Shown: positions 5,813 through 48,658 of the stretch, piece by piece | Numbering within the stretch: position 1 is the stretch's first letter | Layout of the letters: every line of letters starts with the position of its first letter | DNA from: Streptomonospora litoralis | Lineage (GTDB): Bacteria; Actinomycetota; Actinomycetes; Streptosporangiales; Streptosporangiaceae | DNA length: 64,000 nucleotides | NCBI RefSeq assembly: GCF_004323735.1 | Contig: NZ_CP036455.1 | Span: forward strand, 241,101 to 305,100 | Reading direction: 5' to 3' | Notes under the pieces: generated by a model | Told to the model about the DNA's origin: nothing | The model's input: only the letters and a program-made list of their open reading frames with translations | Databases searched by the model: none | Position numbers and translations under genes: made by a program

Positions 5813-5837
5813 GCCGCGGCGCACACTCCCGCCCGTC

Positions 5838-10302: not shown

Positions 10303-10848
10303 TCAGGAGCCGGGCTGCTGGGCGTGCATCATCATCAGGCCCGCGGTGGCATCGGGCGAGTCGACCGGGGTGGTCGTGATCAGCACCTGGCCGTCGGTGA
10401 GGTAGCTCTCGCCGAGCGGCACCTCGTCGGGGTTGGCGCTGTTGTCGGGCAGCACGCGTCCCCAGCCCTGCTCCAGCAGGTGGTTGAACACCTTGTCGAC
10501 GGCCTTCTTCGAGGCATCGTCGCCGGAGCCCCGGCCTTGGCCGCCGTCGCTCTCGCCGTCCTCGGTGGTTATGCCGACGATGCGCACGCACTCGACGTCG
10601 GGGCACTGCTCGCCGAAGTCGGTGTAGGAGGCGCCCTCGGGAGCATCGCCCAGCGCCTTCATCTTCGGGGCCGGAGCCGGAGAGGAGACGCTGCCGGGCG
10701 GGGCGTTGCGCCCCGGAGCGGCGGCCGGATCGGGCGCGCTGAGCGCGTTGAACAGGCCGACGGCTCCCGTGGCGACCATCCCCACGGTCACCGCGGCGGC
10801 CAGGACGACCATGGTCACCCGCGACCGCAGCAGATCCATCAAACGCAT
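10303..10848 (-). CDS. Hypothetical membrane-anchored/secreted protein inserted between purQ and purL
   Basis: 181 aa. N-terminal hydrophobic segment [21 protein letters not shown], then an acidic region. GGGGGA RBS before the ATG at 10848. Confidence 0.55.
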
Positions 10849-10878
10849 ACCAGTCCCCCGGTCTTAGCGTCGGCGGCG

Positions 10879-11583
10879 TCAGCCGGCCGCGGCCGCCGCC
10901 GGGCTGGTGTCGGCCAGATGCGCGAGGAGGGAGGTGAAGAAGTCCAGGCCGTGGGTCGAGGCGCCGGTCAGCTCCTCCACGGCGTGCTCCGGGTGGGGCA
11001 TCAGGCCGACCACGTTGCCGTGCTCGTTGCTGACCCCGGCGATGCCGCGGCGGGCGCCGTTCGGGGCCTCGCCCACATAGCGGGCCACCACGCGGCCGGA
11101 GCGCTCCAGCTCGTCCAGCGTGGCATCGTCGGCGACGAAGCTGCCTTCGCCGCTCTTCAGGACGATGCGGATCTCCTCGCCCTCGATGTACCGGTTGGTC
11201 CAGGCCGTCGCGGTGGACTCCACACGCACGAGCTGCTCGCGGTTGATGAAGCGCAGCGAGCTGTTGCGGGTCAGCGCGCCGGGCAGCAGGTGGCTCTCGC
11301 AGAGGATCTGGAACCCGTTGCAAATGCCAAGCACGGGTAGCGCGCCCGAGCGGGCGGCGGGCACCAGTTCGGTCATGATCGGTGCGAATCGGGCGATGGC
11401 GCCGCAGCGCAGGTAGTCGCCGTAGGAGAAACCACCGGGCAGGATGACGGCGTCGACGCCCTGCAGGCCGGGATCGTCGTGCCAGAGCGGAACGGGTTCG
11501 GCGCCGGCGATTCGGACGGCGCGCGCGGCGTCCCTGTCGTCGAGGGAGCCGGGGAAGGTGACGACGCCCACACGGGCTGTCAT
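10879..11583 (-). CDS. purQ: Phosphoribosylformylglycinamidine synthase subunit PurQ (glutamine amidotransferase)
   Basis: [19 protein letters not shown]...[10 protein letters not shown]...GLMPHPEHA. Class I GATase catalytic Cys/His. Confidence 0.9.
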
Positions 11584-27397: not shown

Positions 27398-28869
27398 GCA
27401 GTGCCGACGAGGCGGCCGCAGCCGAAGGGGACACCCGCCCTCCCGGAGGCCCTGCGGACCGGACGCCGCCTGTGTGCGCGGATACATCCGATGATCCGCT
27501 ATCCGGCGCGCCCGGCGTCGACGTCTCTCGCCCCGCAGCCGATGCGACCTCATCTTCCGCTTCCGCGAGGACGGACACCGTGCCGCAGACTCCCTCGACC
27601 GCCCGCACCACTCCCACACCGCCGGCCGCCCCGCCCGCCGGCGACCCCACAGGCGGCGCCCGCGCCTGGCTCGTGTGGGGCATCGGGGTGGGCGTCTACT
27701 TCCTGGCGATGTTCCACCGCAACAGTCTGGGCGCGGCGGCACTGGAGGCCCAGGAGCGCTTCGACGCCGGTCCCGCGCTGCTCTCCCTGCTGCCCATGCT
27801 GCAACTGCTCGTCTACGTGCTGCTGCAGGTGCCCACCGGCCTCCTCGCCGATCGGGTGGGTCCGCGTGTGTCGCTGATCGCAGGCGCGGTCCTCATGGCG
27901 CTGGGGGTGGCGATCTTCGCGCTCGCACCCTCGATCGAGGCGGCCGTCGCGGGCCGGGTGCTGATCGGCATGGGCGACGCCGTCACCTTCCTCAACGTGA
28001 TCCGCCTGGCCGCCCTGTGGTTCCCGCGCTCCCGCTACGCACTCGTCAGCGGCCTCACCGGCGTCGCCGGCGGACTCGGCCAGGCCGCCAGCGTCGCGCC
28101 GTTGTCCTTCGTGCTGCGCGGAATCGGCTGGACGGGCGCTTTTCTGTCGTTCTCCGCAGTGACGGTCGTGATGGCGCTGCTCGTGCTGCTGGTGGTGCGC
28201 GATCGCCCCTCCGGCCGGCGCACCGAGCCCGTGCAAGCGCCTGTACCCGCTCTGCAGAGCATCGCCGAGGCCCTGCGCACCCGCGGCCCACGGCTGGGCC
28301 TGGCCCACCACGCCGCGATCATGCCGCCGTACACGATGCTCGGCGTGCTGTGGGGCTACCCCTTCCTCGTCGAGGGGATGGGCTACGCGCCGGCGGTCGC
28401 GGGGACGTTGCTCTCCGGCATCGGCGCGGCCGTGCTGTGGATATCGCCGCTCATCGGCGTGGCCGTCGGACGGCGCCCCGCGGTGCGGCGACCGCTGGCG
28501 ACCGGATTGGTGAGCCTGTTCGTGCTGGGCTGGCTGACCCTGGTCGGCTGGCCCGGTGGCCTCCCGCCGACCGGATTGGTGCTGGCGGTGCTGGTGGTCA
28601 GCGCCGCGGGTGCGGTCATCGCGCCCGCCCTGTCCTTCGACTTCGCCCGCGACGGCCTGCCCGCCGAGCGCACCGGCGTGGCCTCGGGCCTGGTGAACAT
28701 GAGCGGATTCCTTACGACGGTGATCGTGACGGTGGCCGCGGGGATCATCCTGGAGGCGGGCGCCGGGTTCCAGGCGGCGTTCGTCCCGGTGACAGTGACG
28801 ACGGCTCTGGCGGGAGGCACGCTGCTCACCCTGCTATGGCGCCGGGCGCCCAGCGACGCGGCGGAGTAG
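27394..28869 (+). CDS. MFS transporter with a roughly 100-aa low-complexity N-terminal extension
   Basis: GTG start overlapping the GntR stop (GTGA). 12 predicted TM helices from ...AWLVWGIGVGVYFLAMFHRNSLGAAA... onward. The N-terminus is Pro/Thr/Ala-rich. Confidence 0.75.
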   Translation: MSSADEAAAAEGDTRPPGGPADRTPPVCADTSDDPLSGAPGVDVSRPAADATSSSASARTDTVPQTPSTARTTPTPPAAPPAGDPTGGARAWLVWGIGVGVYFLAMFHRNSLGAAALEAQERFDAGPALLSLLPMLQLLVYVLLQVPTGLLADRVGPRVSLIAGAVLMALGVAIFALAPSIEAAVAGRVLIGMGDAVTFLNVIRLAALWFPRSRYALVSGLTGVAGGLGQAASVAPLSFVLRGIGWTGAFLSFSAVTVVMALLVLLVVRDRPSGRRTEPVQAPVPALQSIAEALRTRGPRLGLAHHAAIMPPYTMLGVLWGYPFLVEGMGYAPAVAGTLLSGIGAAVLWISPLIGVAVGRRPAVRRPLATGLVSLFVLGWLTLVGWPGGLPPTGLVLAVLVVSAAGAVIAPALSFDFARDGLPAERTGVASGLVNMSGFLTTVIVTVAAGIILEAGAGFQAAFVPVTVTTALAGGTLLTLLWRRAPSDAAE

Positions 28870-28944
28870 TGGGCCGGTCGCCGCTCGGCAGCCCTATCCG
28901 GGCGCCGTGCGCCTGAGGTGGTGATCGTGTCGTTGTCCCCTCGC

Positions 28945-29247
28945 CTACTGGGGAGGCCTGTGCTGCCGGCTCTGAATGACGATCTGCTGCAGCGCGGCGA
29001 GGTGGTCGTCGATGGCCGTCCGCCCCGTGTCGGTCAGCCGCAGGCTCGTGCGCGGGAACTTGCCCGCGTAGCCCTTGTGCACCTGTACATACTCGTGCGC
29101 CTCCAGTTTCGTGATCTGCTTTGAAAGGGCTGATTTGGACAGCCCTGCGGCGTCGCAGACGAAGGAGAAGTCGGCCCAGTCGCATGAGGCGAGCAACGCG
29201 AGGATCTTCAACCGGGTGGGGTCGGCAAGCAGCGGGTCGAACTCCAT
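28945..29247 (-). CDS. ArsR-family winged-helix transcriptional regulator
   Basis: MEFDPLLADPTRLKILALLASCDWADFSFVCDAAGLSKSALSKQITKLEAHEYVQVHKG.... GGAGG RBS. The internal Met was chosen over the longer ORF. Confidence 0.7.
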   Translation of the reverse strand: MEFDPLLADPTRLKILALLASCDWADFSFVCDAAGLSKSALSKQITKLEAHEYVQVHKGYAGKFPRTSLRLTDTGRTAIDDHLAALQQIVIQSRQHRPPQ

Positions 29248-29251
29248 GGCC

Positions 29252-29725
29252 CTACCTCCGGCTTCCGGTCTTGGCCAGCCACCACTGCGCAAAGTGCGGG
29301 CCGCCCAGGGCGAGCACCAGACCCACCACCGCCCCCGGGATGACGGGGTAGGAGGCCCCGAGCACGTACTGCACGGCCGCGTTGAGCGAGAGGAACAGCG
29401 CTGACGCACCCAGCATCGTCAGGAGGGTCAGCGTGCGGGCCCTCCTGCCTGCCGCGCCGGTCAGCCGCGCCCGCCTGCCGGTAAGCCAGCCCCACCGGGC
29501 GGACATGCCGAGCAGAAAAGCCACGAGGGCGACCCCGAGCAGCACCAGTTGGAGGATTTCCGACCCCTCTGGACCCATCAGCCAGATCAGCCCCGATCCG
29601 GCGAATACCCCGCCGCCGAGTACGGCCCAACGCAACCGACCCGTCATCAGCGCCGCAGTCGCCTCCTGACCAGCGGTGCTCGCTTCGTTCAGGTCCCGCA
29701 TCGCATCCGCCGGATCCATGTCCAT
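29252..29725 (-). CDS. Membrane protein (3-4 TM helices), upstream partner of the ArsR regulator
   Basis: MDMDPADAMRDLNEAS...WAVLGGGVFAGSGLIWLMG...LVLLGVALVAFLLGM.... GGAGGG RBS. Stop 4 nt before the ArsR start. Confidence 0.55.
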   Translation of the reverse strand: MDMDPADAMRDLNEASTAGQEATAALMTGRLRWAVLGGGVFAGSGLIWLMGPEGSEILQLVLLGVALVAFLLGMSARWGWLTGRRARLTGAAGRRARTLTLLTMLGASALFLSLNAAVQYVLGASYPVIPGAVVGLVLALGGPHFAQWWLAKTGSRR

Positions 29726-30026
29726 CTTTGCCCTCCAGGCATCTAGTTTCCTAGGGGAATTTAGTTTCCTTGTAGGAAACAGTATCCGGGGTCCGGTCAC
29801 AGTGCAATCCCAGGCGACCGCCGGCGCGCCGACGCGTCGCCTCGCGGCTGACCGATTCCGGACAAGGCGCGCGAGGGGCTGCAGCGGCCTATGCCCCCTT
29901 CGGTAGGGTCGGACGGCACGTGCCGAATGCCGCTCCGCCCTGCTCCCTTTGGGGCGGTGGCGGGGTGACGGTGAGAAGTGCTGTGGCGCCGTGCGTCTCG
30001 TTCTGGGGCGGTGACGGGAGGGCGGG

Positions 30027-30671
30027 ATGGCCGGTCTGCTTGAAGCCTCCCTTTCCTTTCCTACGGTGCTGTTCAGCTTTCTGCTGCTGGTGGTCTTCGG
30101 CTATTGGCTGTTCGTCGTCCTGGGCGCCGTCGACACCGACATCCTCGACGCCGACCTCGACGCCGGATCGTCGGCGGGCGGTATCGGTGGCGCGCTGGGC
30201 GCGGTCGGCCTCGGCGGCGTTCCCGTGACCGTGGTGCTGTCGCTGCTGATCGCGGTGTCGTGGTTCGCGAGCCTGGTGGGAACCGTGCTGATCGACCCCT
30301 TGTCGGACTCCTCGCCGCTGACGATCGCCGTGGCGCTGGTCGTCCTGGTGGCGGCCGTGATCATCGCCTGGGGTGTCACCAGCGCAGTCGTGATGGGTGT
30401 GCGCAGGCTGCTGCCCGCTGAGCGTCAGCGCAGGGGCGGCGACTTCGTCGGCCAGACCTGCGTGGTGCGCACGGGCCGGGTCGACGGCGAGTTCGGGCAG
30501 GCCGAGATCTCCGGCGGCAACGGGTCGTGGTCGCTGATCGAGGTCCGCACCATCGGCGGCGAGCGGCTCACCGCGGGCAGCACCGCGCTCGTCTTCGACT
30601 ACGACGCAGACACCGGTGTCTACCGCGTCACGCCCTACGACTCGGCGCTCGATCCGGGCACTTCCGCCTAG
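30027..30671 (+). CDS. NfeD-like membrane protein (N-terminal TM helices and C-terminal OB-fold), the usual partner of SPFH/flotillin proteins
   Basis: Hydrophobic N-terminus (LFSFLLLVVFGYWLFVVLGAV...), then GDFVGQTCVVRTGRVDGEFGQAEISGGNGSWSLIEVRTIGGERLTAGSTALVFDYDADTGVYRVTP, which is typical of the NfeD OB domain. GGGAGGGCGGG RBS. Confidence 0.7.
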   Translation: MAGLLEASLSFPTVLFSFLLLVVFGYWLFVVLGAVDTDILDADLDAGSSAGGIGGALGAVGLGGVPVTVVLSLLIAVSWFASLVGTVLIDPLSDSSPLTIAVALVVLVAAVIIAWGVTSAVVMGVRRLLPAERQRRGGDFVGQTCVVRTGRVDGEFGQAEISGGNGSWSLIEVRTIGGERLTAGSTALVFDYDADTGVYRVTPYDSALDPGTSA

Positions 30672-30992
30672 CGGTCGCCGAGCCGCCTCCGGCACGGCCG
30701 AGTGGACGCCGTCGGCCCGCACTCCCTGCGCGCAGGGGTTCGCGGAACCCGGTCGGCGGCCGCCGCGTCGTATCGGACACCGCATCGGCACGGCGGCGGG
30801 CTACCGCGCGGCGCCGTCCTATCCTCCGATCCTCCTATCCCCCAACCCCCTGAGCCCACTGAACATCCCCCGATCTCCCCGCGTTCGACGCGCTCCTTCA
30901 GTTCCGCGCCCGGACCGCGCCGCCCGCCGGCGCGGCGCTTGCGGGTGCGCCCGCGTCCGAAGCTCTCCCAGGATGAAAGAGAACACCGCCTG

Positions 30993-33008
30993 ATGGATAC
31001 GAGCACCATCACCGCAGGGGCAGGCGTGCTGCTTGCCGTCGCCCTGCTGATAGTCATCGGCCTGGTCATCACGGTCGCCCGCCTGTTCCGCAAGGTCGAA
31101 CAGGGCAAGGCGCTGATCGTCTCCAAAGTCCGCAAGGTCGACGTCACCTTCACCGGCGCCGTGGTCCTGCCGGTGCTGAACAAGGCCGAGACCATGGACA
31201 TCTCGGTCAAGACCATGGAGCTGGAGCGCAGTGGCAACGACGGTCTGATCTGCAAGGACAACATCCGCGCGGACATCAGTATCAAGTTCTTCGTCCGCGT
31301 CAACCCCACGGCCGAGGACGTGCTGCGCGTCGCCAAGCTCATCGGCGTGGAGAACGCCAGCAGCCAGGACAAGCTGCAGGACCTCTTCAGCGCGAAGTTC
31401 TCCGAGGCGTTGAAGACCGTCGGCAAGCACTTCGACTTCGAGGACCTCTATACCCGCCGCGCCGAATTCCGCGACCGGATCATGGAGGTCATCGGCCAGG
31501 ACCTGAACGGCTACGTCCTCGACGACGCGGCGATCGACTACCTGGAGCAGACCCCCAAGTCCCAGCTCGACACGGACAACATCCTCGACGCGCAGGGCAT
31601 CCTCAAGATCACCGAGCTGACCAAGCCCAAGAACGAGCGCACCCACCTGCTGGAGCAGGACGAGGCCAAGGAGAAGGACCGCCAGACCACCGAGGCGATG
31701 GAGGCGCGCGAGGAGCTGCGCCGCCGCCGCGAGGAGGCCGAGGCCAAGTCCTCCCGCGAGATCGAGACGCTGAAGGCGCGCGAGGAGGCCGAGACCCAGC
31801 GGGTGCAGGCCGAGGAGCGCCTCAAGTCCCACACCGCCCACATCCGCACCGACGAGCAGCTCGGTGTGCAGCGCGAGAACCAGCAGCGCGAGATCGCCGT
31901 GGCCGAGAAGAACCGCGAGCGCGTCATCTCCATCGAGAGTGAGCGCATCGAGAAGGACCGGATGCTGGAGGTCATCGGCCGCGACCGCGAGACCGAACTG
32001 GCGCGCATCGCCAAGGACAAGGAGGTCGAGGGCGACAAGCGCGAGGTCGCCGAGGTCGTGCGCGAGCGCGTCGCCGTCGAGAAGACGGTGGCCGAGCAGG
32101 AGGAGAACATCAAGAAGCTGCGCGCGGTCGAGGAGGCCGAGCGCGATCGCCAGGCCATCGTGATCCACGCCGAGGCCGAGGCCCAGCAGAACCTCGTCAA
32201 GGACATCAAGGCCGCCGAGGCCGCCGAGCAGGCCGCCAAGCACAAGTCCGCCGAGGAGCTGACCCTGGCCGAGGCGCGCCAGCAGGCCACCGAACTCGAC
32301 ACCCGGGCCAAGATCCGCCACGCCGAGGGGCTGCAGGCCGAGGCCGCAGCCGAGGGACTGGCCCAGGTCCAGGTGCGCGAGCAGGACGCCGAGGCGGTGG
32401 AGAAGGTGGGCCGCGCCGAGGCCGCCGTGGAGCGGGAGAAGGCGACCGCGGCAGCCGAGGGCGTCCGCGAGAAGCTCAAGGCCGAGGCCGAGGGCCTCAA
32501 CGAGAAGGCCGGCGCCATGGCCGCCCTCGACGAGGTCAGCCGCGAGCACGAGGAGTACCGCCTGCGCCTGGAGACCGAGAAGGACATCCGGATGGCCGGT
32601 ATCGACGTGCACCGCCAGGTCGCCGAGGCCCAGGCCACCGTGCTGGCCACCGGCCTGGAGAAGGCCGACATCGACATCGTCGGCGGCGACGGCATGTTCT
32701 TCGACCGCATGGTCAACTCCATCGGCATGGGCAAGGCGGTCGACGGGTTCATGGGCAACTCCGACGTCGCCCAGAGCCTGGCCGGGCCGTGGATGGACGG
32801 CTCGCAGAACTTCACCGAGGACCTCTCCCGCGCACTGGGTTCGGTCGGCACCGAGGACGTCAAGAACGTCACGATCTCGGCGGTGCTGCTGCGGCTGATC
32901 AACTCCGGCGGATCCGACAGCGAGAAGATGCGCGAGCTGCTGGACACCGCGCAGCGGCTCGGTGTCGACGAGGCGCCCGTGGCCGCCCTCGACGGCGTGA
33001 AGCGGTGA
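30993..33008 (+). CDS. Flotillin-like SPFH-domain protein (YqiK/FloT-like). N-terminal TM anchor, SPFH domain, and a long E/A/R/K-rich coiled-coil
   Basis: 671 aa. MDTSTITAGAGVLLAVALLIVIGLVITVARLFRKVEQGKALIVSKV..., followed by extensive EA-repeat coiled-coil (...REEAEAKSSREIETLKAREEAETQRVQAEERLK...). Confidence 0.85.
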   Translation: MDTSTITAGAGVLLAVALLIVIGLVITVARLFRKVEQGKALIVSKVRKVDVTFTGAVVLPVLNKAETMDISVKTMELERSGNDGLICKDNIRADISIKFFVRVNPTAEDVLRVAKLIGVENASSQDKLQDLFSAKFSEALKTVGKHFDFEDLYTRRAEFRDRIMEVIGQDLNGYVLDDAAIDYLEQTPKSQLDTDNILDAQGILKITELTKPKNERTHLLEQDEAKEKDRQTTEAMEAREELRRRREEAEAKSSREIETLKAREEAETQRVQAEERLKSHTAHIRTDEQLGVQRENQQREIAVAEKNRERVISIESERIEKDRMLEVIGRDRETELARIAKDKEVEGDKREVAEVVRERVAVEKTVAEQEENIKKLRAVEEAERDRQAIVIHAEAEAQQNLVKDIKAAEAAEQAAKHKSAEELTLAEARQQATELDTRAKIRHAEGLQAEAAAEGLAQVQVREQDAEAVEKVGRAEAAVEREKATAAAEGVREKLKAEAEGLNEKAGAMAALDEVSREHEEYRLRLETEKDIRMAGIDVHRQVAEAQATVLATGLEKADIDIVGGDGMFFDRMVNSIGMGKAVDGFMGNSDVAQSLAGPWMDGSQNFTEDLSRALGSVGTEDVKNVTISAVLLRLINSGGSDSEKMRELLDTAQRLGVDEAPVAALDGVKR

Positions 33009-33012
33009 GCCG

Positions 33013-36000
33013 GTGACCGACGTCGCGACCGAGGGGTCCGCCGCCGAGGCGGACCCCTCCCCGGACCCCGCCCAGGCGTCGCCCGGAAGCGCGCTCGACG
33101 CCGGAACCTACGACGTGCTGCGGTCGCGCCTGGCCGACCGGGCCCAAGAGCTGGCCCGGCGCGCCGAGGCGCTGAACAGCCGCCGCGTCGAGGTCTTCGG
33201 CGGCAACGAGCTGTCCCTGGTCGGCACCGCACGGATCCGCACCGAAAACAACTGCGTACCGCGCGACATCGTCTCGGTCGACGGGTACATGCTGTTCGGC
33301 TACAACGTCTACATCGGGCTCAAACCCGAGACCGCCGTAGGCGACGTGTTCTCGCTGCACACCTTCGTGCGCGGCACCGAGGAGACCTCCGGCGCGTTCC
33401 GCTTCGACGACGCCGACTTCGCGCGGCTGCCCGACCTGCTGTCGGCGCCGCAGTTCCAGCGCGACTTCGGCGAGCTGTACCGCTACTACCGCGAGACCCG
33501 GCTGATGCAGTTGCGGCGAGTGGAGGAGAAGCTGCTCGCCGTCTTCCAGACCGGCCCCCGCACTGAGGACGTGCGGGTGCTGCGCTGGAAGGTGAGCGCC
33601 GACGGCGCCGTCTCCTACCTGGACAACCGGGGCCAGCGTGACCACGTGTTCCCGCCGCCTTACGACTTCGAGTGGACGCCCACGACCCGCGACGACCACG
33701 TGCAGGGCCGCCACCCGCACATCTCGGTGCTGAACGAGCTGTTCGTCGAGACCGTGGGCGGCACCCTCACCGTCAAGATCGAGAACAACACCGAGGTGGG
33801 CGAGGGCGTCTACAGCGAACCCGTCGACGAGCCGCTGCAGAGCCTGGCCGACGCGGAGGTGTCCTACGCCCGCATCGGTGCGCTCGTCCTGCTGCGCGTG
33901 CTGCCCTACAACGAGTCAGCGGCCCGCTACCTGGTCTTCAACAGCCGAACCAAGGACGTGGTGCGGCTCGACGGCATCGGCCAGGCGTGCCGGCTCCTGC
34001 CCGAGGACCAGGGCGTCATCTTCCCCGGCGGCTACTACCTGGCCACGGGCACGGCGAAGACCTTCGACGCGAAGCTGGACGACCTGGAGTTCGAGAAGGT
34101 CGTGCGCTCGCCCAACGGCGAGGACGTGCTTTACGTCTTCCACGCCCGCAAGGAGGGCCGCAGCCTGCTGCTGCCCTACAACGTCATCCGCAAGGAGGTC
34201 GCCGCCCCGATCCCCTGCCACGGCTACTCGCTGTTCGACGACGGCACCCTGGTGGTATTCCGGGCGGCCTCCGAGGAGCCCACCCGGGTGCACCCCATGC
34301 AGGTGTGGCAGACGCCCTACGTCTCCGACGAGTACGCCGCGGCCCAGCCGACGGGCACCGGCCCGCTGGAGCGGGTGGGCAACGCCGAACTCGTGCGCGG
34401 GGTGTCCGACTGCCTGTCGGTGGCGCGCATGGTCGAGGAGATGACGCCGTCGACGCCGGTCTTCGAGGCGCTGATCGCCAACTGCAAGCGGGTGTTCGAC
34501 CACTACCCCTGGCTGGACGACACCGAGCTGGGCGACCTCCACGGTCCGCTCACGGAGGTCCGCGGCACCGCCGAACAGGTCCTCGACGAGTTCGAGAAGG
34601 TGCAGGCGCTCACCGGCCAGGCCGAGAGGGCCGTGCAGGAGGCCGCGGAACAGGTGGCCTCGCTGGTGCGGCGCTCGCGCGGCGAGACGCCGCGCACCGC
34701 CGAAGGCTGGGTGGGCCGGCTGACCGAGCTGCGCCGCGCCCAGGGGCACCTGGTCACGCTGCGCGAGATGCGCTACGTCGACACCGGCCGCGTCGACGGG
34801 TTGGACTCCTCGCTCGCCGACGAGCTGGACTCGGCGGGCCGGCGCGCAGTCGAGTTCCTGCAGGGCGAGGACGCGTTCAGCGCCTACCACACCGAAGTGG
34901 ACCGGCTCGTCGCCGACGCCGAGGCCATCGGCGCGGTGGCCGAAGCCGAACCGGTGGCGGCCCGCATCGCCGAGCAGACCGAGGGGCTGGAGATCGTCAC
35001 CGAGGTCGTCGGCTCCCTGGAGATCGCCGACGCCCGGGTGCGCACCGCCATCCTGGAGCGCATCGGCGAGGTGCTGGGCGGTGTGAACCGGGCGCGCGCC
35101 ACGCTGGAGGCGCGCCGCGGCGAGCTGCTGGACTCCGAGGGGCGGGCGGAGTTCGCCGCGGAGTTCGCTCTGCTGGGGCAGGCGGTCACCGGCGCGCTGG
35201 CGGCGGCCGACAGCCCCGACCGCTGCGACGAGCAGCTCGGCCGGCTGATGCTGCAGATGGAGAACCTGGAGTCGCGCTTCGCGGAGTTCGACGGCTTCCT
35301 GGAGGAGCTCTCCGCCAAGCGGGACGACGTCTACGAGGCGTTCTCCGCGCGCAAGCAGGCGCTGCTGGACGAACGCGCGCGCCGCGCCGACCGGCTGGTG
35401 GAGTCGGCGGAGCGGGTGCTGTCCACCGTCACGCGCCGCGTCGCCGGGCTGGACTCCGCGGACGAGGTCAACACCTACTTCGCCTCCGACCCGATGGTGG
35501 CCAAGCTCCGCTCCAGTGCCGAGGAGCTGCGCGGCCTCGGTGACACGGTGCGCGCCGAGGAGCTGGAGGGGCGGCTCAAGGCCGCCCGCCAGGAGGCCGG
35601 CCGGGCCCTGCGTGACCGCGCCGACCTCTACGACGGCGGCGGCGACACCATCCGACTGGGGCGGCACCGCTTCGCCGTCAACACCCAGCCCTTGGATCTG
35701 ACCCTGGTGCCTGGCGACGGAGCGATGTCGCTGAGCATCACCGGCACCGACTTCCGGCTGCCGGTGACCGATCCCGACTTCCTGGCCACCCGCCCGCTTT
35801 GGGAGCGCTCGCTGGTCTCGGAGAGCCCCGAGGTCTACCGCGCCGAGTACCTGGCGGTGTCGATCCTGGCCGACGCAGGGGTCGGCGCGGGCCCGGTGCC
35901 GTCACTCGCCGAGCTCGACCGGGCGGCCGCCGAGGGCGGGGACGACCCCGGAGCCGGACTGCTGCCCATCGTGCGCTCGGCCGCCGAGGAGCGCTACGAC

Positions 36001-38073
36001 GAGGGGTACGAACGCGGAGTCCACGACCACGACGCCGCGCAGCTGCTCGCTGCGCTGCTGCGTCTGCACACCGGTGCCGGGTTGCTGCGCTATCCCGGTC
36101 CGGACCGCGCCGCGGCCCAGCTGTACTGGGCCTTCGGCGCAGCCGAGGACGCCAAGTCCGCCTGGGCCACCCGGGCCGCCTCGCTCGCGCGCGCCCGCGA
36201 CGCCTTCGGCGGGCATCGCTCACCGGCGATCGGCGCGCTGTGCGCCGAGCTGGACGCCGCCGTCACCGGGTTCGCGGCCGAAACAGGCGTGCCGCAGCCG
36301 GACGGCGGTACCGGCATGGCGGGGGAGTACCTGTTCGAGGAGCTGGCCCAGGGCGGCGCGTTCGTCACCGCCGCCGGAGCCCGCACGCTGCTGGACCGCT
36401 TCGGCCGCGCACTCGGCGGCGGCGCCGCGGCGTCGCGTCAGGACTTCGAGCGCGACGTCCGTTCGCTGGGCACCGACCTGGCCGCCCGCCACCAGCTGGT
36501 GACGGCGTGGCTGGAGGCGTATCTGGCGAACGCGCAGCACACCGGCGACGCCTGGGACCTCGCCGAGGCGGCGGCGATCGAGCTGTGCGGCACCGCGGTG
36601 AACCGGCGTGAATCCTCTGCGGCGCTGAGCACCGAGGTCACCGGTCTGCTGGGGGCGCACCCGCGCGTCTCCGGCCGCCGGATGACGCTGCGGCTGGACG
36701 AGGTGCTGCCACGGGTGCGCCGCTTCCGCGCCGAGGAGGTCCCGGCCTTCCGCGACTACCAGCGCCGCCGCCACGAGCTGGTCGCCCGCGAGCGCACCCG
36801 CCTGCGGCTGGAGGAGTACCGCCCCTCGGTGATGAGCGGGTTCGTGCGCAACCGGCTGCTGGACGAGGCCTACCTGCCGCTGATCGGCGACAACCTCGCC
36901 AAGCAGCTCGGCGCGGCCGGCGACGACAAGCGCACCGACCAGAGCGGCCTGCTGCTGCTCATCTCACCGCCCGGCTACGGCAAGACCACGCTGATGGAGT
37001 ACGTCGCCAGCCGGCTCGGCCTGGTGTTCGTCAAGGTCGACGGCCCCGCGCTGGGGCACGCGGTCACTTCGCTGGACCCCGCCGAAGCGCCGGACGCCAC
37101 CGCCCGCCAGGAGGTCGAGAAGATCAACTTCGCCCTGGAGATGGGTAGCAACGCGCTGCTGTACCTGGACGACATTCAGCACACCGACCCGGAGCTGCTG
37201 CAGAAGTTCATCTCGCTGTGCGACGGCCAGCGGCGCATGGAGGGCGTGTGGGAGGGCCGCACCCGCACCTACGACCTGCGGGGCAAGCGGTTCGCGGTCT
37301 GTATGGCAGGCAACCCCTACACCGAGCAGGGCAGCCGGTTCCGCGTCCCCGACATGCTGGCCAACCGCGCCGACGTCTACAACCTCGGCGACGTCCTCTC
37401 CGGCCGCGACGAGCTGTTCGCGCTCAGCTACATCGAGAACGCACTGACGTCCAACCCGGTGCTGGCGCCGCTGTCCACCCGCGAGCGCGGCGACATCGAG
37501 CTGCTGGTGCGCATGGCCAAGGGCGACGAATCGGTGCGCGCCGACCAGCTGTCCCACCCCTACTCGCGGGTGGAGCTGGAGCAGGTGCAGGCGGTGCTGG
37601 CCAAACTGGTGCGCGTCCAGCAGGTGGTGCTGGCCGCCAACCAGACCTACATCGCCTCGGCGGCCCAGGCCGACGAGTCCCGCACCGAGCCGCCGTTCCG
37701 GCTGCAGGGCTCCTACCGCAACATGAACCGGCTGGCCGAGAAAGTCGTCCCGGTGATGAACGAGACCGAGTTGGAGGCCGCAATCGACGACCACTACCTC
37801 GGCGAAGCCCAGACCCTCACCTCCGGCGCGGAGGCCAACCTGCTCAAGCTGGCCGAAATTCGCGGCACACTCACCGCCGAGCAGGCCGAGCGCTGGGAGC
37901 AGGTCAAGGCCGCCTACCGCCGCGCGAAGGCCCTCGGCGGCGACGGCGACGACCCGATGAGCCGGGCCGTGGGTGCGGTGGGCCTGCTGGCCGACCGCGT
38001 CGGCGCGGTGGAGGAGGCCATCGAGCGGGCGGCGGGGGCGTTCGTCGCACGGGATCCGGGACAGGGCCGATAG
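33013..38073 (+). CDS. Giant 1,686-aa protein with a C-terminal AAA+ P-loop ATPase domain. It is flotillin-associated and of unknown function
   Basis: GTG start 4 nt after the flotillin stop. Walker A LLLISPPGYGKTT (about 36964-36990). Walker B LLYLDDIQHTD (about 37159-37191), and RVPDMLANRADVYNLG. The N-terminal roughly 550 aa is beta-rich and the central region is helical. Confidence 0.8.
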   Translation: MTDVATEGSAAEADPSPDPAQASPGSALDAGTYDVLRSRLADRAQELARRAEALNSRRVEVFGGNELSLVGTARIRTENNCVPRDIVSVDGYMLFGYNVYIGLKPETAVGDVFSLHTFVRGTEETSGAFRFDDADFARLPDLLSAPQFQRDFGELYRYYRETRLMQLRRVEEKLLAVFQTGPRTEDVRVLRWKVSADGAVSYLDNRGQRDHVFPPPYDFEWTPTTRDDHVQGRHPHISVLNELFVETVGGTLTVKIENNTEVGEGVYSEPVDEPLQSLADAEVSYARIGALVLLRVLPYNESAARYLVFNSRTKDVVRLDGIGQACRLLPEDQGVIFPGGYYLATGTAKTFDAKLDDLEFEKVVRSPNGEDVLYVFHARKEGRSLLLPYNVIRKEVAAPIPCHGYSLFDDGTLVVFRAASEEPTRVHPMQVWQTPYVSDEYAAAQPTGTGPLERVGNAELVRGVSDCLSVARMVEEMTPSTPVFEALIANCKRVFDHYPWLDDTELGDLHGPLTEVRGTAEQVLDEFEKVQALTGQAERAVQEAAEQVASLVRRSRGETPRTAEGWVGRLTELRRAQGHLVTLREMRYVDTGRVDGLDSSLADELDSAGRRAVEFLQGEDAFSAYHTEVDRLVADAEAIGAVAEAEPVAARIAEQTEGLEIVTEVVGSLEIADARVRTAILERIGEVLGGVNRARATLEARRGELLDSEGRAEFAAEFALLGQAVTGALAAADSPDRCDEQLGRLMLQMENLESRFAEFDGFLEELSAKRDDVYEAFSARKQALLDERARRADRLVESAERVLSTVTRRVAGLDSADEVNTYFASDPMVAKLRSSAEELRGLGDTVRAEELEGRLKAARQEAGRALRDRADLYDGGGDTIRLGRHRFAVNTQPLDLTLVPGDGAMSLSITGTDFRLPVTDPDFLATRPLWERSLVSESPEVYRAEYLAVSILADAGVGAGPVPSLAELDRAAAEGGDDPGAGLLPIVRSAAEERYDEGYERGVHDHDAAQLLAALLRLHTGAGLLRYPGPDRAAAQLYWAFGAAEDAKSAWATRAASLARARDAFGGHRSPAIGALCAELDAAVTGFAAETGVPQPDGGTGMAGEYLFEELAQGGAFVTAAGARTLLDRFGRALGGGAAASRQDFERDVRSLGTDLAARHQLVTAWLEAYLANAQHTGDAWDLAEAAAIELCGTAVNRRESSAALSTEVTGLLGAHPRVSGRRMTLRLDEVLPRVRRFRAEEVPAFRDYQRRRHELVARERTRLRLEEYRPSVMSGFVRNRLLDEAYLPLIGDNLAKQLGAAGDDKRTDQSGLLLLISPPGYGKTTLMEYVASRLGLVFVKVDGPALGHAVTSLDPAEAPDATARQEVEKINFALEMGSNALLYLDDIQHTDPELLQKFISLCDGQRRMEGVWEGRTRTYDLRGKRFAVCMAGNPYTEQGSRFRVPDMLANRADVYNLGDVLSGRDELFALSYIENALTSNPVLAPLSTRERGDIELLVRMAKGDESVRADQLSHPYSRVELEQVQAVLAKLVRVQQVVLAANQTYIASAAQADESRTEPPFRLQGSYRNMNRLAEKVVPVMNETELEAAIDDHYLGEAQTLTSGAEANLLKLAEIRGTLTAEQAERWEQVKAAYRRAKALGGDGDDPMSRAVGAVGLLADRVGAVEEAIERAAGAFVARDPGQGR

Positions 38074-38205
38074 ACCGGGGCCGTCCCGTCGAGGGCCCGC
38101 GGCTCGGCTGAACGTTCGGCCGAACCGCGGGCCATCTATCGCGGTGGGACGGGCGCCGGGTGACGGGACTCTCTACCCGCCGACAGCGGGGCCCGCTGGC
38201 CGAGC

Positions 38206-38238
38206 ACTACTACCGGGTAGTAACATGATGTTGTTACC
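38206..38238. promoter_or_regulatory. Operator-like palindromic site upstream of the acyl-CoA dehydrogenase gene
   Basis: ACTACCgGGTAGT overlapping GGTAGTAACAtgaTGTTGTTACC. It shares the core TAGTAACAT with the site at 49166-49186. Confidence 0.5.
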
Positions 38239-38291
38239 AGTCAGTAGATCGCGTGTGCACACACCGCGGCCCGGACAAGCGGAGCGCGCCC

Positions 38292-40115
38292 ATGACGCAC
38301 TACAAGAGCAATGTCCGCGACCTCGAGTTCAACCTCTTCGAGGTCTTCAAGCGCCAGGACGTGCTGGGCAGCGGCCCGTTCGAGGAGCTGGACGAGGACA
38401 CGGCCCGCACCATCCTCGACGAGGTGAACCGGCTCGCCACCGGCGCGGTCGCCGAGTCCTTCGAGGACGGCGACCGCAACCCGCCGGTGTTCGACCCCGC
38501 CACCGGTGCCGCCACCCTTCCCGAGAGCCTGAAGAAGTCCTACCGGGCCTACATGGACGCCGGCTGGTACAACCTCGACCTGCCCCCGGAGCTGGGCGGC
38601 CTCAACGCGCCGCGCACGCTCGCGTGGGCCGCGGCCGAGCTGATCCTCGGCGCCAACCCCGCTGTGCACATGTACGCGGCCGGTCCGGGCTTCGCCAAGG
38701 TGCTCTACGAGGAAGGCAACGACACCCAGAAGCGGATCGCCCAGCAGGCCATCGACCGCGGCTGGGGCGCCACCATGGTGCTCACCGAGCCCGACGCGGG
38801 CTCCGACGTCGGCGCCGGGCGCACCAAGGCCGCCGATCAGGGCGACGGCACCTGGCACATCGAGGGGGTGAAGCGCTTCATCACCTCCGCCGAGCAGGAC
38901 ATGACCGAGAACATCTTCCACCTGGTCCTGGCGCGCCCCGAGGGCGCCAAGCCCGGCACCAAGGGCCTCTCGCTGTTCCTGGTACCGAAGTTCCTCATCA
39001 ACGAGGACGGCTCGCCCGGCGAGCGCAACGGCGTCTACGTCACCAACGTCGAGCACAAGATGGGCCTGAAGGCGTCCACCACCTGCGAGCTGACGTTCGG
39101 CGCCAAACACCCCGCCGTCGGCTACCTGGTCGGCGACAAGCACGACGGCATCCGGCAGATGTTCCTGGTCATCGAGCACGCCCGGATGATGGTGGGCACC
39201 AAGGCCATCGCCACGCTCTCCACCGGCTACCTCAACGCGCTGGAGTACGCCAAGGAGCGCAAGCAGGGCGCCGACCTGACCCGGATGGCCGACAAGACCG
39301 CGCCGCGGGTGTCCATCACCCAGCACCCCGACGTCCGGCGCAGCCTGATGACGCAGAAGGCGTACACCGAGGGGCTGCGCGCGCTGGTCATCTACACCGC
39401 AAGCCAGCAGGACGCGGTTCAGATCGCCGAGCACGAGGGCGCCGACCACAGCGCCACGGACGCGCTCAACGACCTGCTGCTGCCCATCGTCAAGGGCGTG
39501 GGCTCCGAGCGCTCCTACGCGCTGCTCGCCGAGTCGCTGCAGACGCTGGGCGGGTCCGGCTACCTGCAGGACTACCCGCTGGAGCAGTACATCCGCGACG
39601 CCAAGATCGACACCCTCTACGAGGGCACCACCGCGATCCAGGCGCAGGACTTCTTCTTCCGCAAGATCGTGAAGAACAACGGCGAGGCGTTCGGCCGGCT
39701 CGTCGGCGAGATCAAGGAGTTCGCCGCGGGCGAGGCCGGCAACGGACGGCTCAAGAAGGAGCGGGCCGCCCTTGCCGAGGCCGCCGAACACGTGGAGAAG
39801 ATGGTCGAGACCATGGTCAACGACCTGATGCGCTCCGCCGAGCAGACCGACGAGCTCTACAAGGTCGGGCTGAACACCACCCGCCTGCTGATGAGCGCCG
39901 GCGACCTGGTGCTGGGCTGGCTGCTGCTGCGCCAGTCAGAGGTCGCCCTCGGCGCGCTCGACGGAGCCGACGACGCCGACCGCGACTTCTACACCGGCAA
40001 GGTCGCCGCCGCGAGCTTCTTCGCCGACCAGGTCCTGCCGCGCCTGGCGGGCGAGCGCGCGATCGTGGAGAACACCACCCTCGACCTCATGGAGGTCCCG
40101 GAGGCGGCGTTCTAG
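38292..40115 (+). CDS. Long-type acyl-CoA dehydrogenase (FadE5-like, about 607 aa)
   Basis: [18 protein letters not shown]... N-terminal extension, then the ACAD fold (...[20 protein letters not shown]..., ...[31 protein letters not shown]). Confidence 0.85.
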
Positions 40116-41510: not shown

Positions 41511-44126
<2,616 letters not shown>

Positions 44127-44303
44127 GCGTCGCCGCCCCCTTCGCGCGTGATCGCTATGCGGTTTTCATAGAGGTGCCGTGGTGTCGGCGCGAAAGCCGT
44201 CCGGTGGAGTCCGCCGGGTCCGCCCCACCGTTTGCTTCCGCGGTCGGGCACGGGCCTCCCTCGCCGACCGCCCGCGGCGGCCGGCACGACCCGGCGGAAT
44301 TCG

Positions 44304-44729
44304 CTACTGGTCCGGCTCGGGCGGAGGAGAGGTGTTGAAGATCGTCAGCCGGGTGCGCCGCACCGGCAGCAGTTCGCCGCCTGTGCTCTCGCCCGCGGAG
44401 GAGCGCCGCGCGACTGCCGAACGGGCCGCGTCCAGCTCGTTGCGCAGGTGGAACACGTGCTCGTGCAGCTTTTCCACCTCGTCCTCCAACTCCAGGATGC
44501 GCTTGATCCCGGCGAGGTTGATGCCTTCCTCCTGGGAGAGCCGCTGCACCTCACGCAGCGTCCGGATGTCGCGCATGGAGTAGCGCCGCCCGCGCCCGGA
44601 GGCCCGGCCCGGCGAGACCAGGCCCAGCCGGTCGTACTGGCGCAGCGTCTGCGGATGCAGCCCGGACAGCTCGGCGGCCACCGAGATCACATAGACCGGG
44701 ATGTCGTCGCCCAGCCCCGGATTGGTCAT
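44304..44729 (-). CDS. hspR: Heat-shock repressor HspR (MerR family)
   Basis: [79 protein letters not shown].... Sits at the 3' end of the dnaK operon. Confidence 0.85.
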
Positions 44730-44734
44730 GACAT

Positions 44735-45889
44735 TCACATCCCCTTCGCGCGCGTCTCCAGACCGCTGCGCGGGTCCTGCTCCGCGGTCGCGGCGCGGAA
44801 CTTCTCCAGTGCCTCGCGGGCGTCGCCGCTGAGGCTCTGCGGCACCGACACCTCGACGGTGACCAGAAGGTCGCCTGCCGTGCCGTCCCGCCGAGCGGTT
44901 CCCTTGCCGCGGACGCGGAACGTGCGCCCGTTGGGGGTTCCCGGCGGGATCTTGACCGTGACCGGCAGACCGTTGAGCGTCGGCACCCGGACATCGGCGC
45001 CGAGCACGGCCTCGGGGAAGGTCACCGGGACGTTGATCGTCAGGTTGTCGCCGGACTTGCCGAACACGGGGTGCGGCTGCACATGTACCACCACATAGAG
45101 GTCTCCGGCCGGTCCACCGTGTTCGCCCGGCGCTCCTTTGCCCTTGAGCCGGATCCGCTGGCCGTCGGAGACGCCCGCGGGGATCCGCGCCTGGATGGTG
45201 CGGGTGCTCTTGCCGCGCCCGCTGCCGTTGCAGGTGGGGCAGGGGTCGTCGACGACGAGCCCGCGCCCCTTGCACTCGCTGCAGGGCTCCGACAGCGAGA
45301 ATCCGCCCAGATTCTGGTTCTCGTGCCCGGTGCCCGAGCACCTCGGGCACACCCGCGGCGCCGTGCCGGCCTTGGCGCCGGTGCCCTTGCAGGTGCCGCA
45401 CGCGGCGTCGCTGCTGAGCTGGAACGACCGGGTGAGACCGGTGGCCGCCTCGGCGAAGGACAGCCGTGTCTCGGTCTCGACGTCGGACCCGCGCCGGGGC
45501 TGGGTCGTGGTCCGGCCGCGGCCGCCGAACAGCCCGCCGAACAGGTCGCTCAGCCGCTCGCCGCCCCCGCCGGGCTGGCCGCCCCCCTGGCCGAACAGGT
45601 CGCCCAGGTCGAAGCCGCCCGCACCGGTGTTTCCGCCGGGCCGGTAGGAGCCGCCGAAGAGGGACCGGGCGTCGTCGTACTCCTTGCGCCGCTTCTCGTC
45701 GCTGAGCACGTTGTAAGCCTCGGAGATCTCCTTGAAGCGCTCCTCGGCCTGGGGGTCGCCGGTGTTGGCGTCGGGGTGGTTCTCACGCGCGAGCTTGCGA
45801 TAGGACTGCTTGATCTCGTCCTGCGAGGCGGTCTTTGAGACTCCGAGGACCTTGTAGTAGTCCTTCTCCAGGTAGTCCTTGGTGCTCAT
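44735..45889 (-). CDS. dnaJ: Chaperone DnaJ
   Basis: J-domain ([31 protein letters not shown]), G/F-rich region, four CxxCxGxG zinc-finger repeats. Confidence 0.9.
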
Positions 45890-46020
45890 CGACGTCTGCC
45901 TTCTCCCGCTTCGCGCTCTGGGTCGAATGGTCCCGGGCACCGGCCCCCGAGGCCCGCCGCGGCGGGCCGTCCGGTGTCCGAGCGCCCCGGGCGCCGCTCG
46001 GGCGCCCGGGGCTCGGCGGT

Positions 46021-46773
46021 TCACTGGTTGTCGCCACCGGTCCCGCCGGGCTGGTCGGGACCGGGCTCCTCGGTCGAGGCGCCCGGCTCGTCCGCCCCCG
46101 GTTGCGATTCGGCGGATTCCGCGGCCTCAGCGGCATCGTCCCCAGGACCCGCGACCACCACGCGTGCGGGGCGCAGAACGCGCTCGCCGATGGTGTAACC
46201 GGGCTGGAAGACCTCGATGACCGTGGGCACCGTGGCGTCGGGCGAGGGGACCATGGTCAGGGCCTCGTGGACGTTCGGGTCGAACTCGTCGCCCTGCTCG
46301 CCGTACTTCTTCAGCCCCAACTTGGTGACCAGCGCCTCCAGGGACTCGCCGACGGACTTGAAACCGCCGGTGAGCTCGTCGTGCTCCCGCGCCCGGCCGA
46401 TGTCGTCGATGATCGGCAGGAGTTCGCCGACCACCTGGGCCATGGCCTGCTCGCGCACGGCCACGCGGTCGCGCTCGACGCGCTTGCGGTAGTTGGCGTA
46501 CTCCGCCTGGATCCGCTTGAGGTCGTTGGTCAGCTCCACGACGTGCTCGCGGGCCTTGAGGAGCTCGCCTTCCTCGGCTGCACCGTCGACGACGACGGGC
46601 TCCTCCTCCTCGACGACCTCGACGTCGGCCTCAGGGGAGTCGGGAGCGACGCCCTCGGCGCCCGCGGCTCCCTCGGGCGTGCGGAGCTCGCCGGTCTCGG
46701 GGTCTATGCGACGCCTGTCGCGGACCACCGGTCCCTGCTGCTCCTCGCCGTTTTCGTTCTCCGGCAGCGCCAT
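46021..46773 (-). CDS. grpE: Nucleotide exchange factor GrpE
   Basis: ...LKRIQAEYANYRKRVERDR...KKYGEQGDEFDPNVHEAL.... The internal ATG at 46773 was chosen. Confidence 0.85.
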   Translation of the reverse strand: MALPENENGEEQQGPVVRDRRRIDPETGELRTPEGAAGAEGVAPDSPEADVEVVEEEEPVVVDGAAEEGELLKAREHVVELTNDLKRIQAEYANYRKRVERDRVAVREQAMAQVVGELLPIIDDIGRAREHDELTGGFKSVGESLEALVTKLGLKKYGEQGDEFDPNVHEALTMVPSPDATVPTVIEVFQPGYTIGERVLRPARVVVAGPGDDAAEAAESAESQPGADEPGASTEEPGPDQPGGTGGDNQ

Positions 46774-46807
46774 TGGCTGCGCCTCCCTTGACTTGCCTCT
46801 CGGCCGA

Positions 46808-48658
46808 TCAGGCGTTGCCGTCCTTCTTGTTCTCCTCGTCGACGATCTCGGCGTCCACGACGTCGTTGTCGTCGTTCTGCGCCTGCTCGCCGGACGCGGC
46901 GTCCTCGGCGCCGGCGCCCTGCTCGCCCTGGCCGTAGATGGAGGAGCCGATCTTCTGGCTGGCCAGCGCAACCTTCTCGCTCGCCTGGCGGATCACCTCG
47001 ATGTCGGTGCCCTCCAGGGCCTGCTTCAGCTCGCCGACGGCGGACTCGGTCTCGGACTTGACGTCGGCCGGGATCTGCTCCTCGTTGTCCTTGATGACCT
47101 TCTCGGTCTGGTGGACCAGCGACTCCGCGTTGTTGCGGACCTCGGCCTCTTCGCGGCGCTTGCGGTCCTCCTCGGCGTACTGCTCGGCCTCGCGGACCAT
47201 CTTGTCGATCTCGTCCTGGCTCATGGCCGAGCCGCCGGAGATGGTGACCGACTGCTCCTTGCCCGTGCCCATGTCCTTGGCGGTCACGTTCACGATGCCG
47301 TTGGCGTCGATGTCGAAGGTCACCTCGACCTGGGGCACGCCGCGCGGCGCCGGCGGCAGACCGGTCAGGTCGAAGACGCCGAGCTTCTTGTTGTACTGCG
47401 CGATCTCGCGCTCGCCCTGGTAGACCTGGATCTGCACCGAGGGCTGGTTGTCGTCGGCGGTGGTGAAGATCTCCGAGCGCTTGGTCGGGATGGTCGTGTT
47501 CTTCTCGATCAGCTTGGTGAACACGCCGCCCTTGGTCTCGATACCCAGCGACAGCGGGGTGACGTCCAGCAGCAGGACGTCCTTCACCTCGCCCTTGAGC
47601 ACACCGCCCTGCAGCGCGGCGCCGATGGCCACGACCTCGTCGGGGTTGACACCCTTGTTGGGCTCCTTGCCGCCGGTCAGCTCCTTGACAAGTTCCACGA
47701 CCGCGGGCATGCGGGTGGAGCCGCCGACCATCACCACGTGGTCGATCTTGTCGACGCTGATGCCGGCGTCCTTGATGACCTGGTGGAAGGGCTGCTTGGT
47801 GCGGTCCAGCAGGTCGGAGGTCAGCCGCTGGAACTCCGCGCGGGTCAGCTTCTCGTCGAGGTGCAGCGGGCCCTCGGAGGAGGCGGTGATGTAAGGCAGG
47901 TTGATGGCCGACTCGCTGGAGCTGGACACCTCGATCTTGGCCTTCTCCGCCGCCTCGCGCAGGCGCTGCAGCGCCATCTTGTCCTTGGACAGGTCGACGC
48001 CGTTGTTGTTCTTGAAGCGCTCGACCATCCAGTCGACGATCGCCTGGTCCCAGTCGTCGCCGCCGAGGTGGTTGTCGCCGTTGGTGGCCTTCACCTCGAC
48101 AACGCCGTCGCCGACCTCCAGCAGGGAGACGTCGAAGGTGCCGCCACCGAGGTCGTAGACCAGGATGGTGGCCTCGTCCTCCTTCTCCAGGTGGTAGGCC
48201 AGCGCCGCGGAGGTGGGCTCGTTGATGATGCGCAGGACGTTCAGGCCCGCGATCGTGCCGGCTTCCTTGGTGGACTGGCGCTGGGCGTCGGAGAAGTAGG
48301 CCGGCACGGTGATGACGGCGTCGGTGACCTCTTCGCCCAGGTATGCCTCGGCGTCGCGCTTGAGCTTCTGCAGCACGAACGCGCTGATCTGCTGGGAGTT
48401 GAACTCCTTGTCGTCGATCTCGGTCTTCCAGTCGGTGCCGATGTGGCGCTTCACCGAGCGGATGGTCCGGTCGACGTTGGTTACCGCCTGGCGCTTGGCG
48501 ACCTCGCCCATCAGCACCTCGCCGTTCTTGGCGAAGGCAACGACGGACGGAGTGGTCCGGGCGCCTTCGGCGTTGGCGATGACCGTGGGCTCGCCGCCCT
48601 CCAGGACCGAGACGACCGAGTTCGTCGTCCCCAGGTCGATACCGACCGCACGTGCCAT
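46808..48658 (-). CDS. dnaK: Chaperone DnaK (Hsp70)
   Basis: [24 protein letters not shown]...[13 protein letters not shown].... Canonical Hsp70. Confidence 0.95.

Follow-up and report, generated by a model that had tools for sequence, protein, structure and literature searches.

Anatomy of the flotillin–ATPase unit

The window analyzed here is a 64,000-nucleotide stretch of Streptomonospora litoralis DNA (contig NZ_CP036455.1, positions 241,101–305,100 of the forward strand), and positions 30027–38073 of it carry 3 genes, which encode a small YqiJ/YuaF-like membrane protein, a YqiK/FloT-type flotillin, and a large AAA+ ATPase of the DUF3686 family. The locus is best explained as a widespread membrane-stress module in its short form, which lacks PspA and is composed of a YqiJ-like protein with 3 transmembrane segments (3TM), a flotillin of this type, and a MoxR-like AAA+ ATPase. 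The overall G+C content of the window is approximately 70%, and the G+C content at third codon positions (GC3) singles out the real genes. The GC3 values of 0.90 (30027–30671), 0.96 (30993–33008), and 0.95 (33013–38073), all on the + strand, are a strong coding signature and bear out the 3 co-directional genes seen in the original prediction, a reading of the sequence alone that took the locus for a candidate undescribed membrane-microdomain or conflict system. The features of the locus, in coordinates of the window, are as follows:

30027–30671, + strand: YqiJ/YuaF-like small membrane protein, 214 residues (GC3, hydrophobic segments, and profile comparison)
30672–30992, + strand: G+C-rich non-coding spacer of 321 nt from the yqiJ-like gene to the flotillin gene (GC3 of 0.70–0.77 in all three frames)
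30993–33008, + strand: YqiK/FloT-type flotillin, 671 residues, with an N-terminal transmembrane segment, an SPFH domain, a long Glu/Ala-rich coiled coil, and a C-terminal globular region (Band_7 and YqiK matches)
33013–38073, + strand: cytosolic AAA+ ATPase of the DUF3686 family, 1,686 residues (Pfam and AlphaFold2 models)
33148–34506, + strand: DUF3686 region of the ATPase (residues 46–498), one long helix and then a β-rich, propeller-like repeat domain
34870–35121, + strand: DUF7902 (residues 620–703), within a long helical-bundle region (residues ~439–850)
36925–37842, + strand: AAA+ module of the MoxR/dynein/midasin type (residues ~1305–1610), with a β-hairpin before sensor 1
36973–36990, + strand: Walker A GYGKTT (residues 1321–1326), from the translation, invariant in 28 relatives
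37156–37182, + strand: Walker B region LLYLDDIQH (residues 1382–1390), from the translation, with D1386, D1387, I1388, Q1389, and H1390 invariant
38091–38136, + strand: G+C-rich hairpin, an inverted repeat whose 23-nt arms are 87% complementary and have no loop gap between them

The ATPase is 100% identical to an S. litoralis NCBI entry named "DNA repair ATPase". It matches Pfam DUF3686 (PF12458) over residues 46–498 (E = 2.4e-218; 725.5 bits against a gathering threshold of 25), Pfam DUF7902 (PF25472) over residues 620–703 (E = 1.2e-31; 109.2 bits against a threshold of 26), and Pfam AAA/AAA_5 over residues 1314–1439. The protein has no hydrophobic or transmembrane segment, and both of its partners are membrane-anchored. 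Sequence searches against solved structures returned only weak P-loop-level AAA matches, and Pfam scans of the longer members of the family (1,850–2,040 residues) added no domain from which a function could be guessed. AlphaFold2 models of residues 1–850 and 851–1686, which have mean predicted local distance difference test (pLDDT) values of 86 and 85, respectively, divide the ATPase as follows:

residues 1–29: disordered tail
residues 32–62: helix
residues 68–433: β-rich domain
residues 439–850: helical bundles with helices of 48–58 residues
residues ~879–917: small β element
residues ~943–1192: helical domain
from residue ~1300: AAA+ module and lid

We measured the conservation of the ATPase over 28 relatives that are 29–61% identical to the window protein. 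Residues K1324, T1325, D1386, D1387, N1434, R1452, and R1569 are invariant in all 28; Walker A, Walker B, and sensor 1 are kept without exception, and so is each arginine at a finger or sensor-2 position. Because these residues are invariant, the ATPase is probably catalytically active. Both motifs by which it had been recognized, GYGKTT and LLYLDDIQH, are indeed present in its C-terminal part. The acidic pair of the Walker B motif is DD (37171–37176), not the usual DE, and this pair and the following I-Q-H are invariant family-wide. The AAA+ fold is nearest to those of the MoxR remodellers CbbQ and NorQ, and the module has the AAA_5-type fold of the MoxR class, in which Walker A, Walker B, and sensor 1 are all intact; we assign it to the MoxR/dynein-like group.

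The flotillin matches Pfam Band_7 over residues 34–174 (35.7 bits against a cut-off of 23.6; E = 1.2e-8) and has a single N-terminal transmembrane segment (residues 2–36). Its coiled-coil stretch contains 19.7% Glu and 16.7% Ala, and the earlier description of a 671-residue SPFH/flotillin protein with a Glu/Ala-rich coiled coil, starting at ATG 30993, is confirmed. BLASTP aligned the protein with Escherichia coli YqiK (E = 3e-34), whereas the score against the FloT equivalog model NCBIfam NF058507 was 16.7 bits against a cut-off of 700; judged by these matches, it is a flotillin-type SPFH protein and not a FloT orthologue. A search of its sequence against solved structures gave no match. The longest open reading frame (ORF) of the gene would extend the protein by 97 codons from GTG 30702. 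This extension was ruled out by codon-position composition and orthologue alignment: the length of 671 residues is right because the region 30702–30992 has no coding signature and because the Micromonospora orthologue, which is 69% identical, aligns from residue 6 of the product that starts at ATG 30993.

The 214-residue protein has 3 hydrophobic segments followed by a soluble C-terminal domain, which agrees with the membrane protein originally predicted; of the first assignment, an NfeD-like protein with a putative OB fold, the NfeD likeness was not borne out by model searches. The protein had no match in Pfam or NCBIfam, no match to the NfeD model (PF01957) was found even at E values up to 10, and that model matched only 1 of 22 orthologues of the small protein (E = 0.0024). 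A profile built from the 22 syntenic orthologues (A2) gave a weak match to E. coli YqiJ (E = 8e-5, with a probability of 61%) and, in hhalign, matched the Planctomycetota protein that occupies the same operon position and carries Pfam YqiJ_N with E = 1.7e-29. The protein is best called YqiJ/YuaF-like, an assignment made by profile comparison only.

The tight spacing described for the 3 genes applies to one junction and not to the other. The ATPase gene starts with a GTG 4 nt past the flotillin stop codon (33008 and 33013), exactly as first read, but the small gene is separated from the flotillin gene by the 321-nt spacer. The 4-nt spacing alone suggests that translation of the flotillin and the ATPase may be coupled. 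The spacer could harbour an internal promoter or a 5′ untranslated region, and with an internal promoter the flotillin and ATPase genes might be transcribed apart from the small gene. A promoter and terminator consensus scan, which performed at chance level, found no sigma-70-like site in the spacer, and an Rfam scan of 28800–38400 gave no match. The hairpin at 38091–38136 begins 18 nt past the ATPase stop codon and is probably the end of the transcription unit; it was not called by the terminator scan because it lacks a U-tract.

The flotillin–ATPase pair and its gene context in other genomes

The ATPase belongs to a large family, with more than 6,200 matches in a word-indexed search, 1,409 clusters at 50% identity (E up to 1e-3) in metagenome-scale data, and at least 589 confirmed relatives among at least 600 pattern-matched stretches when one genome per species was considered. 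The loci of the best 80 of these at least 589 relatives and 5 others were examined, 81 of them with upstream DNA, and 8 further loci (L087–L094) were retrieved later. A flotillin homologue lies immediately upstream of the ATPase gene on the same strand in all 81 loci with upstream DNA, which come from Actinomycetota, Myxococcota, Acidobacteriota, a Clostridia metagenome-assembled genome (MAG), Pseudomonadota, Bacteroidota, and Deinococcota, and in 7 of the 8 later loci (L087, L088, and L090–L094). With these later loci, the pair spans 7 or more phyla, and it is kept both in distant clades in which ATPase identity is 27–38% and in further phyla:

L087: metagenome clade with ATPase identity of 27–32%, pair kept
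L088: Sphingobacterium, pair kept
L090: Vibrio, pair kept
L091: Proteus, pair kept
L092: Flavobacterium, pair kept
L093: Planctomycetota MAG, pair kept
L094: Agaribacterium, pair kept

Because a flotillin gene directly precedes each of the sampled full-length homologues for which upstream sequence was available, the assignment of the ATPase as a dedicated flotillin partner is well supported, and this central claim of the original prediction stands down to ATPase identities of ~27–32%. Homologues mostly away from flotillin or NfeD, the pattern set beforehand as contrary to the prediction, were not found. A candidate start codon of the ATPase gene lies within 20 nt of the flotillin stop codon, often with an overlap of 4 or 8 nt, in roughly 25 of 62 loci, which is an approximate estimate. 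The genes that flank the pair vary among loci. A yqiJ-like homologue precedes the flotillin gene in ~65 of the 81 loci; it is missing from ~12 Streptomyces loci, in which the unit consists of the flotillin and the ATPase only. The flotillin–ATPase pair is the constant core of the unit, and YqiJ and PspA are frequent but optional.

The exception among the later loci, L089, encodes at 8001–11123 a 1,040-residue protein with DUF3686 and DUF7902 that lacks both the AAA+ module and a flotillin neighbour; either this copy has decayed, or the N-terminal domains are used separately here. This truncated relative sits among Por_Secre_tail (type IX secretion) proteins. In tblastn and BLASTP, the flotillins of L074 and L084 matched only through their C-terminal ~180 residues. 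The partial match in L074 (7322–9916), the one of the 2 whose translation was inspected, is a BLAST reporting artefact, because the translation is a complete flotillin homologue. In these flotillins, the remaining alignment pieces seem to be suppressed by the composition-biased coiled coil.

Outside Actinomycetota, genes related to membrane stress recur beside the unit. PspA occurs in L003, L004, L088, L092, L093, and L094. It is accompanied by a CesT/Tir-like or DUF2170 gene in Hymenobacter, Sphingobacterium, Flavobacterium, and Agaribacterium, and stands without such a gene in the plasmid pQBR103, where yjf-like genes follow, and in the Planctomycetota MAG, which has 2 PspA copies. TelA lies beside the unit in L087 and in the Vibrio locus (L090), the latter also with a gene for an HKD phospholipase D that starts right next to the ATPase stop codon; TPM was found in the Sphingobacterium (L088) and Proteus (L091) loci, LemA in the Proteus locus, and rhomboid protease genes near the unit in L003, L088, and L094. 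The TelA, phospholipase D, TPM, and LemA neighbours lie at these positions:

L087: 12989–14227
L090: 12834–14612
L088: 12874–14391
L091: 2675–4455

These 4 families are all membrane-associated, and their functions are poorly known. No PspA gene was found in the window or in L006–L085, and no CesT/Tir or phospholipase D gene was found within the 64-kb window. A PucR-like regulator (GGDEF_2 and HTH_30) is present in 31 Streptomyces and Embleya loci (within L033–L084, at about 5300–7500), mostly divergent and just upstream; besides this regulator, the recurring gene families in the examined loci are opposite-strand shadow ORFs only. The Flavobacterium litorale locus (L092) has an extra 586-residue gene (5228–6988), probably for a coiled coil and with a faint SMC_N match, between the flotillin and the ATPase, and is otherwise a complete operon in the order HTH_3, CesT_Tir, PspA, YqiJ-like, flotillin, and ATPase.

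In the window, a divergent pair of genes on the − strand, for a winged-helix regulator (HTH_34, 28945–29247) and a 156-residue membrane protein (29252–29722), lies upstream of the unit, and the intergenic region shared with the unit contains an inverted repeat, GTTTCCTA...TAGGAAAC (29746–29780), that could be an operator. The next gene downstream, an acyl-CoA dehydrogenase gene (38253–40115), starts 180 nt from the ATPase gene, and an imperfect palindrome, CTACCGGGTAGTAACA / TGTTACCAGTCAGTAG (38210–38247), just 5′ of it may be a regulator site. A complete heat-shock cluster, dnaK-grpE-dnaJ-hspR-clpB (41511–48658, − strand), in which clpB comes straight after hspR, lies 3.4 kb downstream of the ATPase gene. 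A heat-shock link of the flotillin unit was considered and dropped, as this neighbourhood is not kept in other genomes.

Prior description, proposed mechanism, and alternative explanations

A comparative-genomics study of the phage-shock (PspA) membrane-stress system by Ravi et al. (2024, mSystems; preprint 2020; PMC11237479) described CesT/Tir–PspA operons that add a band-7/flotillin protein, an AAA+ protein, a 3TM protein of the YqiJ/YuaF type, and sometimes a phospholipase D, and found that abbreviated operons without PspA are widely distributed. Those authors inferred ATP-dependent membrane remodelling or chaperone-like assembly for this association and drew an analogy with ESCRT-III/Vps4. 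Because the contexts around the DUF3686 homologues agree with that account in every point, the flotillin–AAA+ association is not new, and the epithet "undescribed" has to be given up, the short PspA-less form included. The fuller contexts (CesT/Tir, PspA, and phospholipase D) were recovered around homologues of the window ATPase; compared with the full form, which has the CesT/Tir–PspA dyad, the window locus lacks this dyad and belongs to the abbreviated class. The window flotillin has the characters of the flotillin in that operon (one transmembrane segment, Band_7, Glu/Ala-rich coiled coil, and YqiK match), and the 214-residue protein has the 3TM YqiJ/YuaF-type arrangement. The window ATPase is equated with the AAA+ protein of Ravi et al. 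by matching architecture and context, not by a shared accession, as no Pfam name is given in the paper. What the window holds is one ordinary member of a module already described computationally, a worthwhile experimental target and not a discovery, and the labels DUF3686 and "DNA repair ATPase" are now tied to the flotillin/PspA module.

We propose, tentatively and with a little less than even confidence, that this cytosolic, MoxR-like enzyme binds to the flotillin/YqiJ assembly and remodels it or its clients with ATP during membrane stress. An established precedent is the pairing of SPFH scaffolds with AAA+ machines or proteases, as in HflK/C–FtsH. The flotillin would oligomerize into a scaffold at the cytoplasmic side of the membrane; the ATPase would oligomerize through its C-terminal AAA+ module, presumably as a hexamer; and the N-terminal propeller-like and helical-bundle domains would make the physical contact by which the ATPase docks onto the flotillin/YqiJ assembly. 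We infer that either this assembly or the clients held there may be the substrate, and that ATP may be spent in the direction of assembly, disassembly, or recycling. The outcome would be a tuning of the dynamics of membrane microdomains and of membrane repair, probably in concert with a PspA from another part of the genome, and PspA assemblies at stressed membranes might possibly be remodelled as well. A bolder form of this proposal, which we hold to be possible rather than probable, is that the DUF3686 protein would be the first ATP-driven machine dedicated to bacterial flotillin; its propeller and helical arm would grip the flotillin/YqiJ cage, and the enzyme would open, disassemble, or recycle this cage. 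The idea of such a flotillin machine was already proposed in silico in 2020 and 2024.

Several observations weigh against this proposal. The 321-nt spacer and the ~12 Streptomyces loci without a yqiJ-like gene mean that the small protein is dispensable for the core pair, and the DD in place of DE in the Walker B motif means that hydrolysis may be slow or regulated. MoxR-type ATPases usually act with a VWA partner, and no VWA family was found in Pfam scans of the ATPase and the neighbours examined, in which the middle domain of the ATPase (residues 851–1270) was not searched separately. Gene adjacency by itself does not tell whether the flotillin serves as the substrate or as a platform. In our literature search, neither DUF3686 nor PF12458 was named in any paper, and no experiments on the ATPase or the other members of the unit were reported.

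The ATPase could instead be a Vps4-like partner of PspA/IM30, the bacterial ESCRT-III, with the flotillin and YqiJ just recruiting it to damaged membrane and the PspA polymer as the substrate. In 6 of ~10 non-actinomycete loci, the operon contains or adjoins a PspA gene, often along with one of the CesT/Tir-like type, and the Vps4 analogy of Ravi et al. points the same way; however, PspA is optional in the unit and the flotillin is not, and we regard this account as unlikely. We give a similarly low weight to membrane-protein quality control in the manner of HflK/C–FtsH, in which a flotillin cage would confine damaged or unfolded proteins and the AAA+ protein would extract or refold these clients as its substrate. 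In the unit studied here, however, neither a protease domain nor a protease partner is conserved, the ATPase has no transmembrane anchor, and no aromatic pore-loop motif was noticed past the Walker A strand, by eye and not by rigorous analysis.

The suggestion of a phage-conflict context in the original prediction was not supported. The ATPase is 58–72% identical across many actinomycete families, in chromosomal settings that are otherwise unrelated, a pattern consistent with vertical inheritance under strong constraint; there is no nuclease, toxin, or other effector domain; a tblastn search of 50,697 phage records gave no match; and a search of the 3 proteins against PADLOC-DB 2.0 returned only IetA (E ~0.005 over ~30 P-loop residues), which is P-loop-level noise. 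An anti-phage or conflict system with the ATPase as a membrane-acting sensor or effector is very improbable, even though copies occur on large plasmids (pQBR103 and plasmids of Hymenobacter and Deinococcus), LexA-like or HTH_3 repressors adjoin the operon in Bacteroidota, and AbiJ-NTD4 and deaminase genes are among the neighbours in the Agaribacterium locus. A function in DNA repair, the least credible of these accounts, has behind it the names in NCBI, UniRef, and Pfam and a faint similarity to RuvB in its P-loop part (E of 1.5e-4 to 1.5e-3). The RuvB matches cover only ~45 residues around the P-loop and score far under the cut-offs (20.8 bits against 282 for NCBIfam RuvB, 18.7 against 27 for Pfam RuvB_N), no DNA-binding or nuclease domain was found, and the gene is always beside membrane proteins and never beside repair genes in the sampled loci. 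No paper that we found supports the name "DNA repair ATPase" or ties flotillin to such a protein, and the Streptomyces envelope-stress literature held nothing relevant.

Bacterial flotillins are usually seen as passive, ATP-independent scaffolds, and a strictly linked AAA+ partner of ~1,650 residues with an intact active site offers a handle on energy-driven flotillin dynamics and on the PspA connection. If remodelling by the ATPase is true, flotillin microdomains would be a membrane-repair system under active cycling, whose cooperation with PspA would resemble that of Vps4 with ESCRT-III.

Comparison with known systems

The unit shares with E. coli YqiJ–YqiK and Bacillus subtilis YuaF–FloT the order of a small multi-transmembrane protein followed by a flotillin. 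Comparison with the E. coli pair revealed 2 differences: (i) the yqiJK genes have no ATPase gene downstream and are followed instead by sibD/ibsD; and (ii) the window flotillin has 671 residues compared with 553 in YqiK, and its C-terminal ~240 residues have no YqiK match in BLAST. Compared with the MoxR-class remodellers (CbbQ, NorQ, and RavA) and the AAA_5 group (dynein and midasin), the window ATPase adds ~1,300 N-terminal residues and has the DD pair in Walker B, and it did not match the bpMoxR model of the MoxR–vWA–propeller ternary systems. The likeness to HflK/C–FtsH lies in the functional link of an SPFH-family scaffold with an AAA+ machine at the inner membrane. Unlike FtsH, however, the window ATPase is soluble, has no protease domain, and belongs to a different AAA+ clade, and its SPFH partner is of the flotillin type, not of the HflK/C type.

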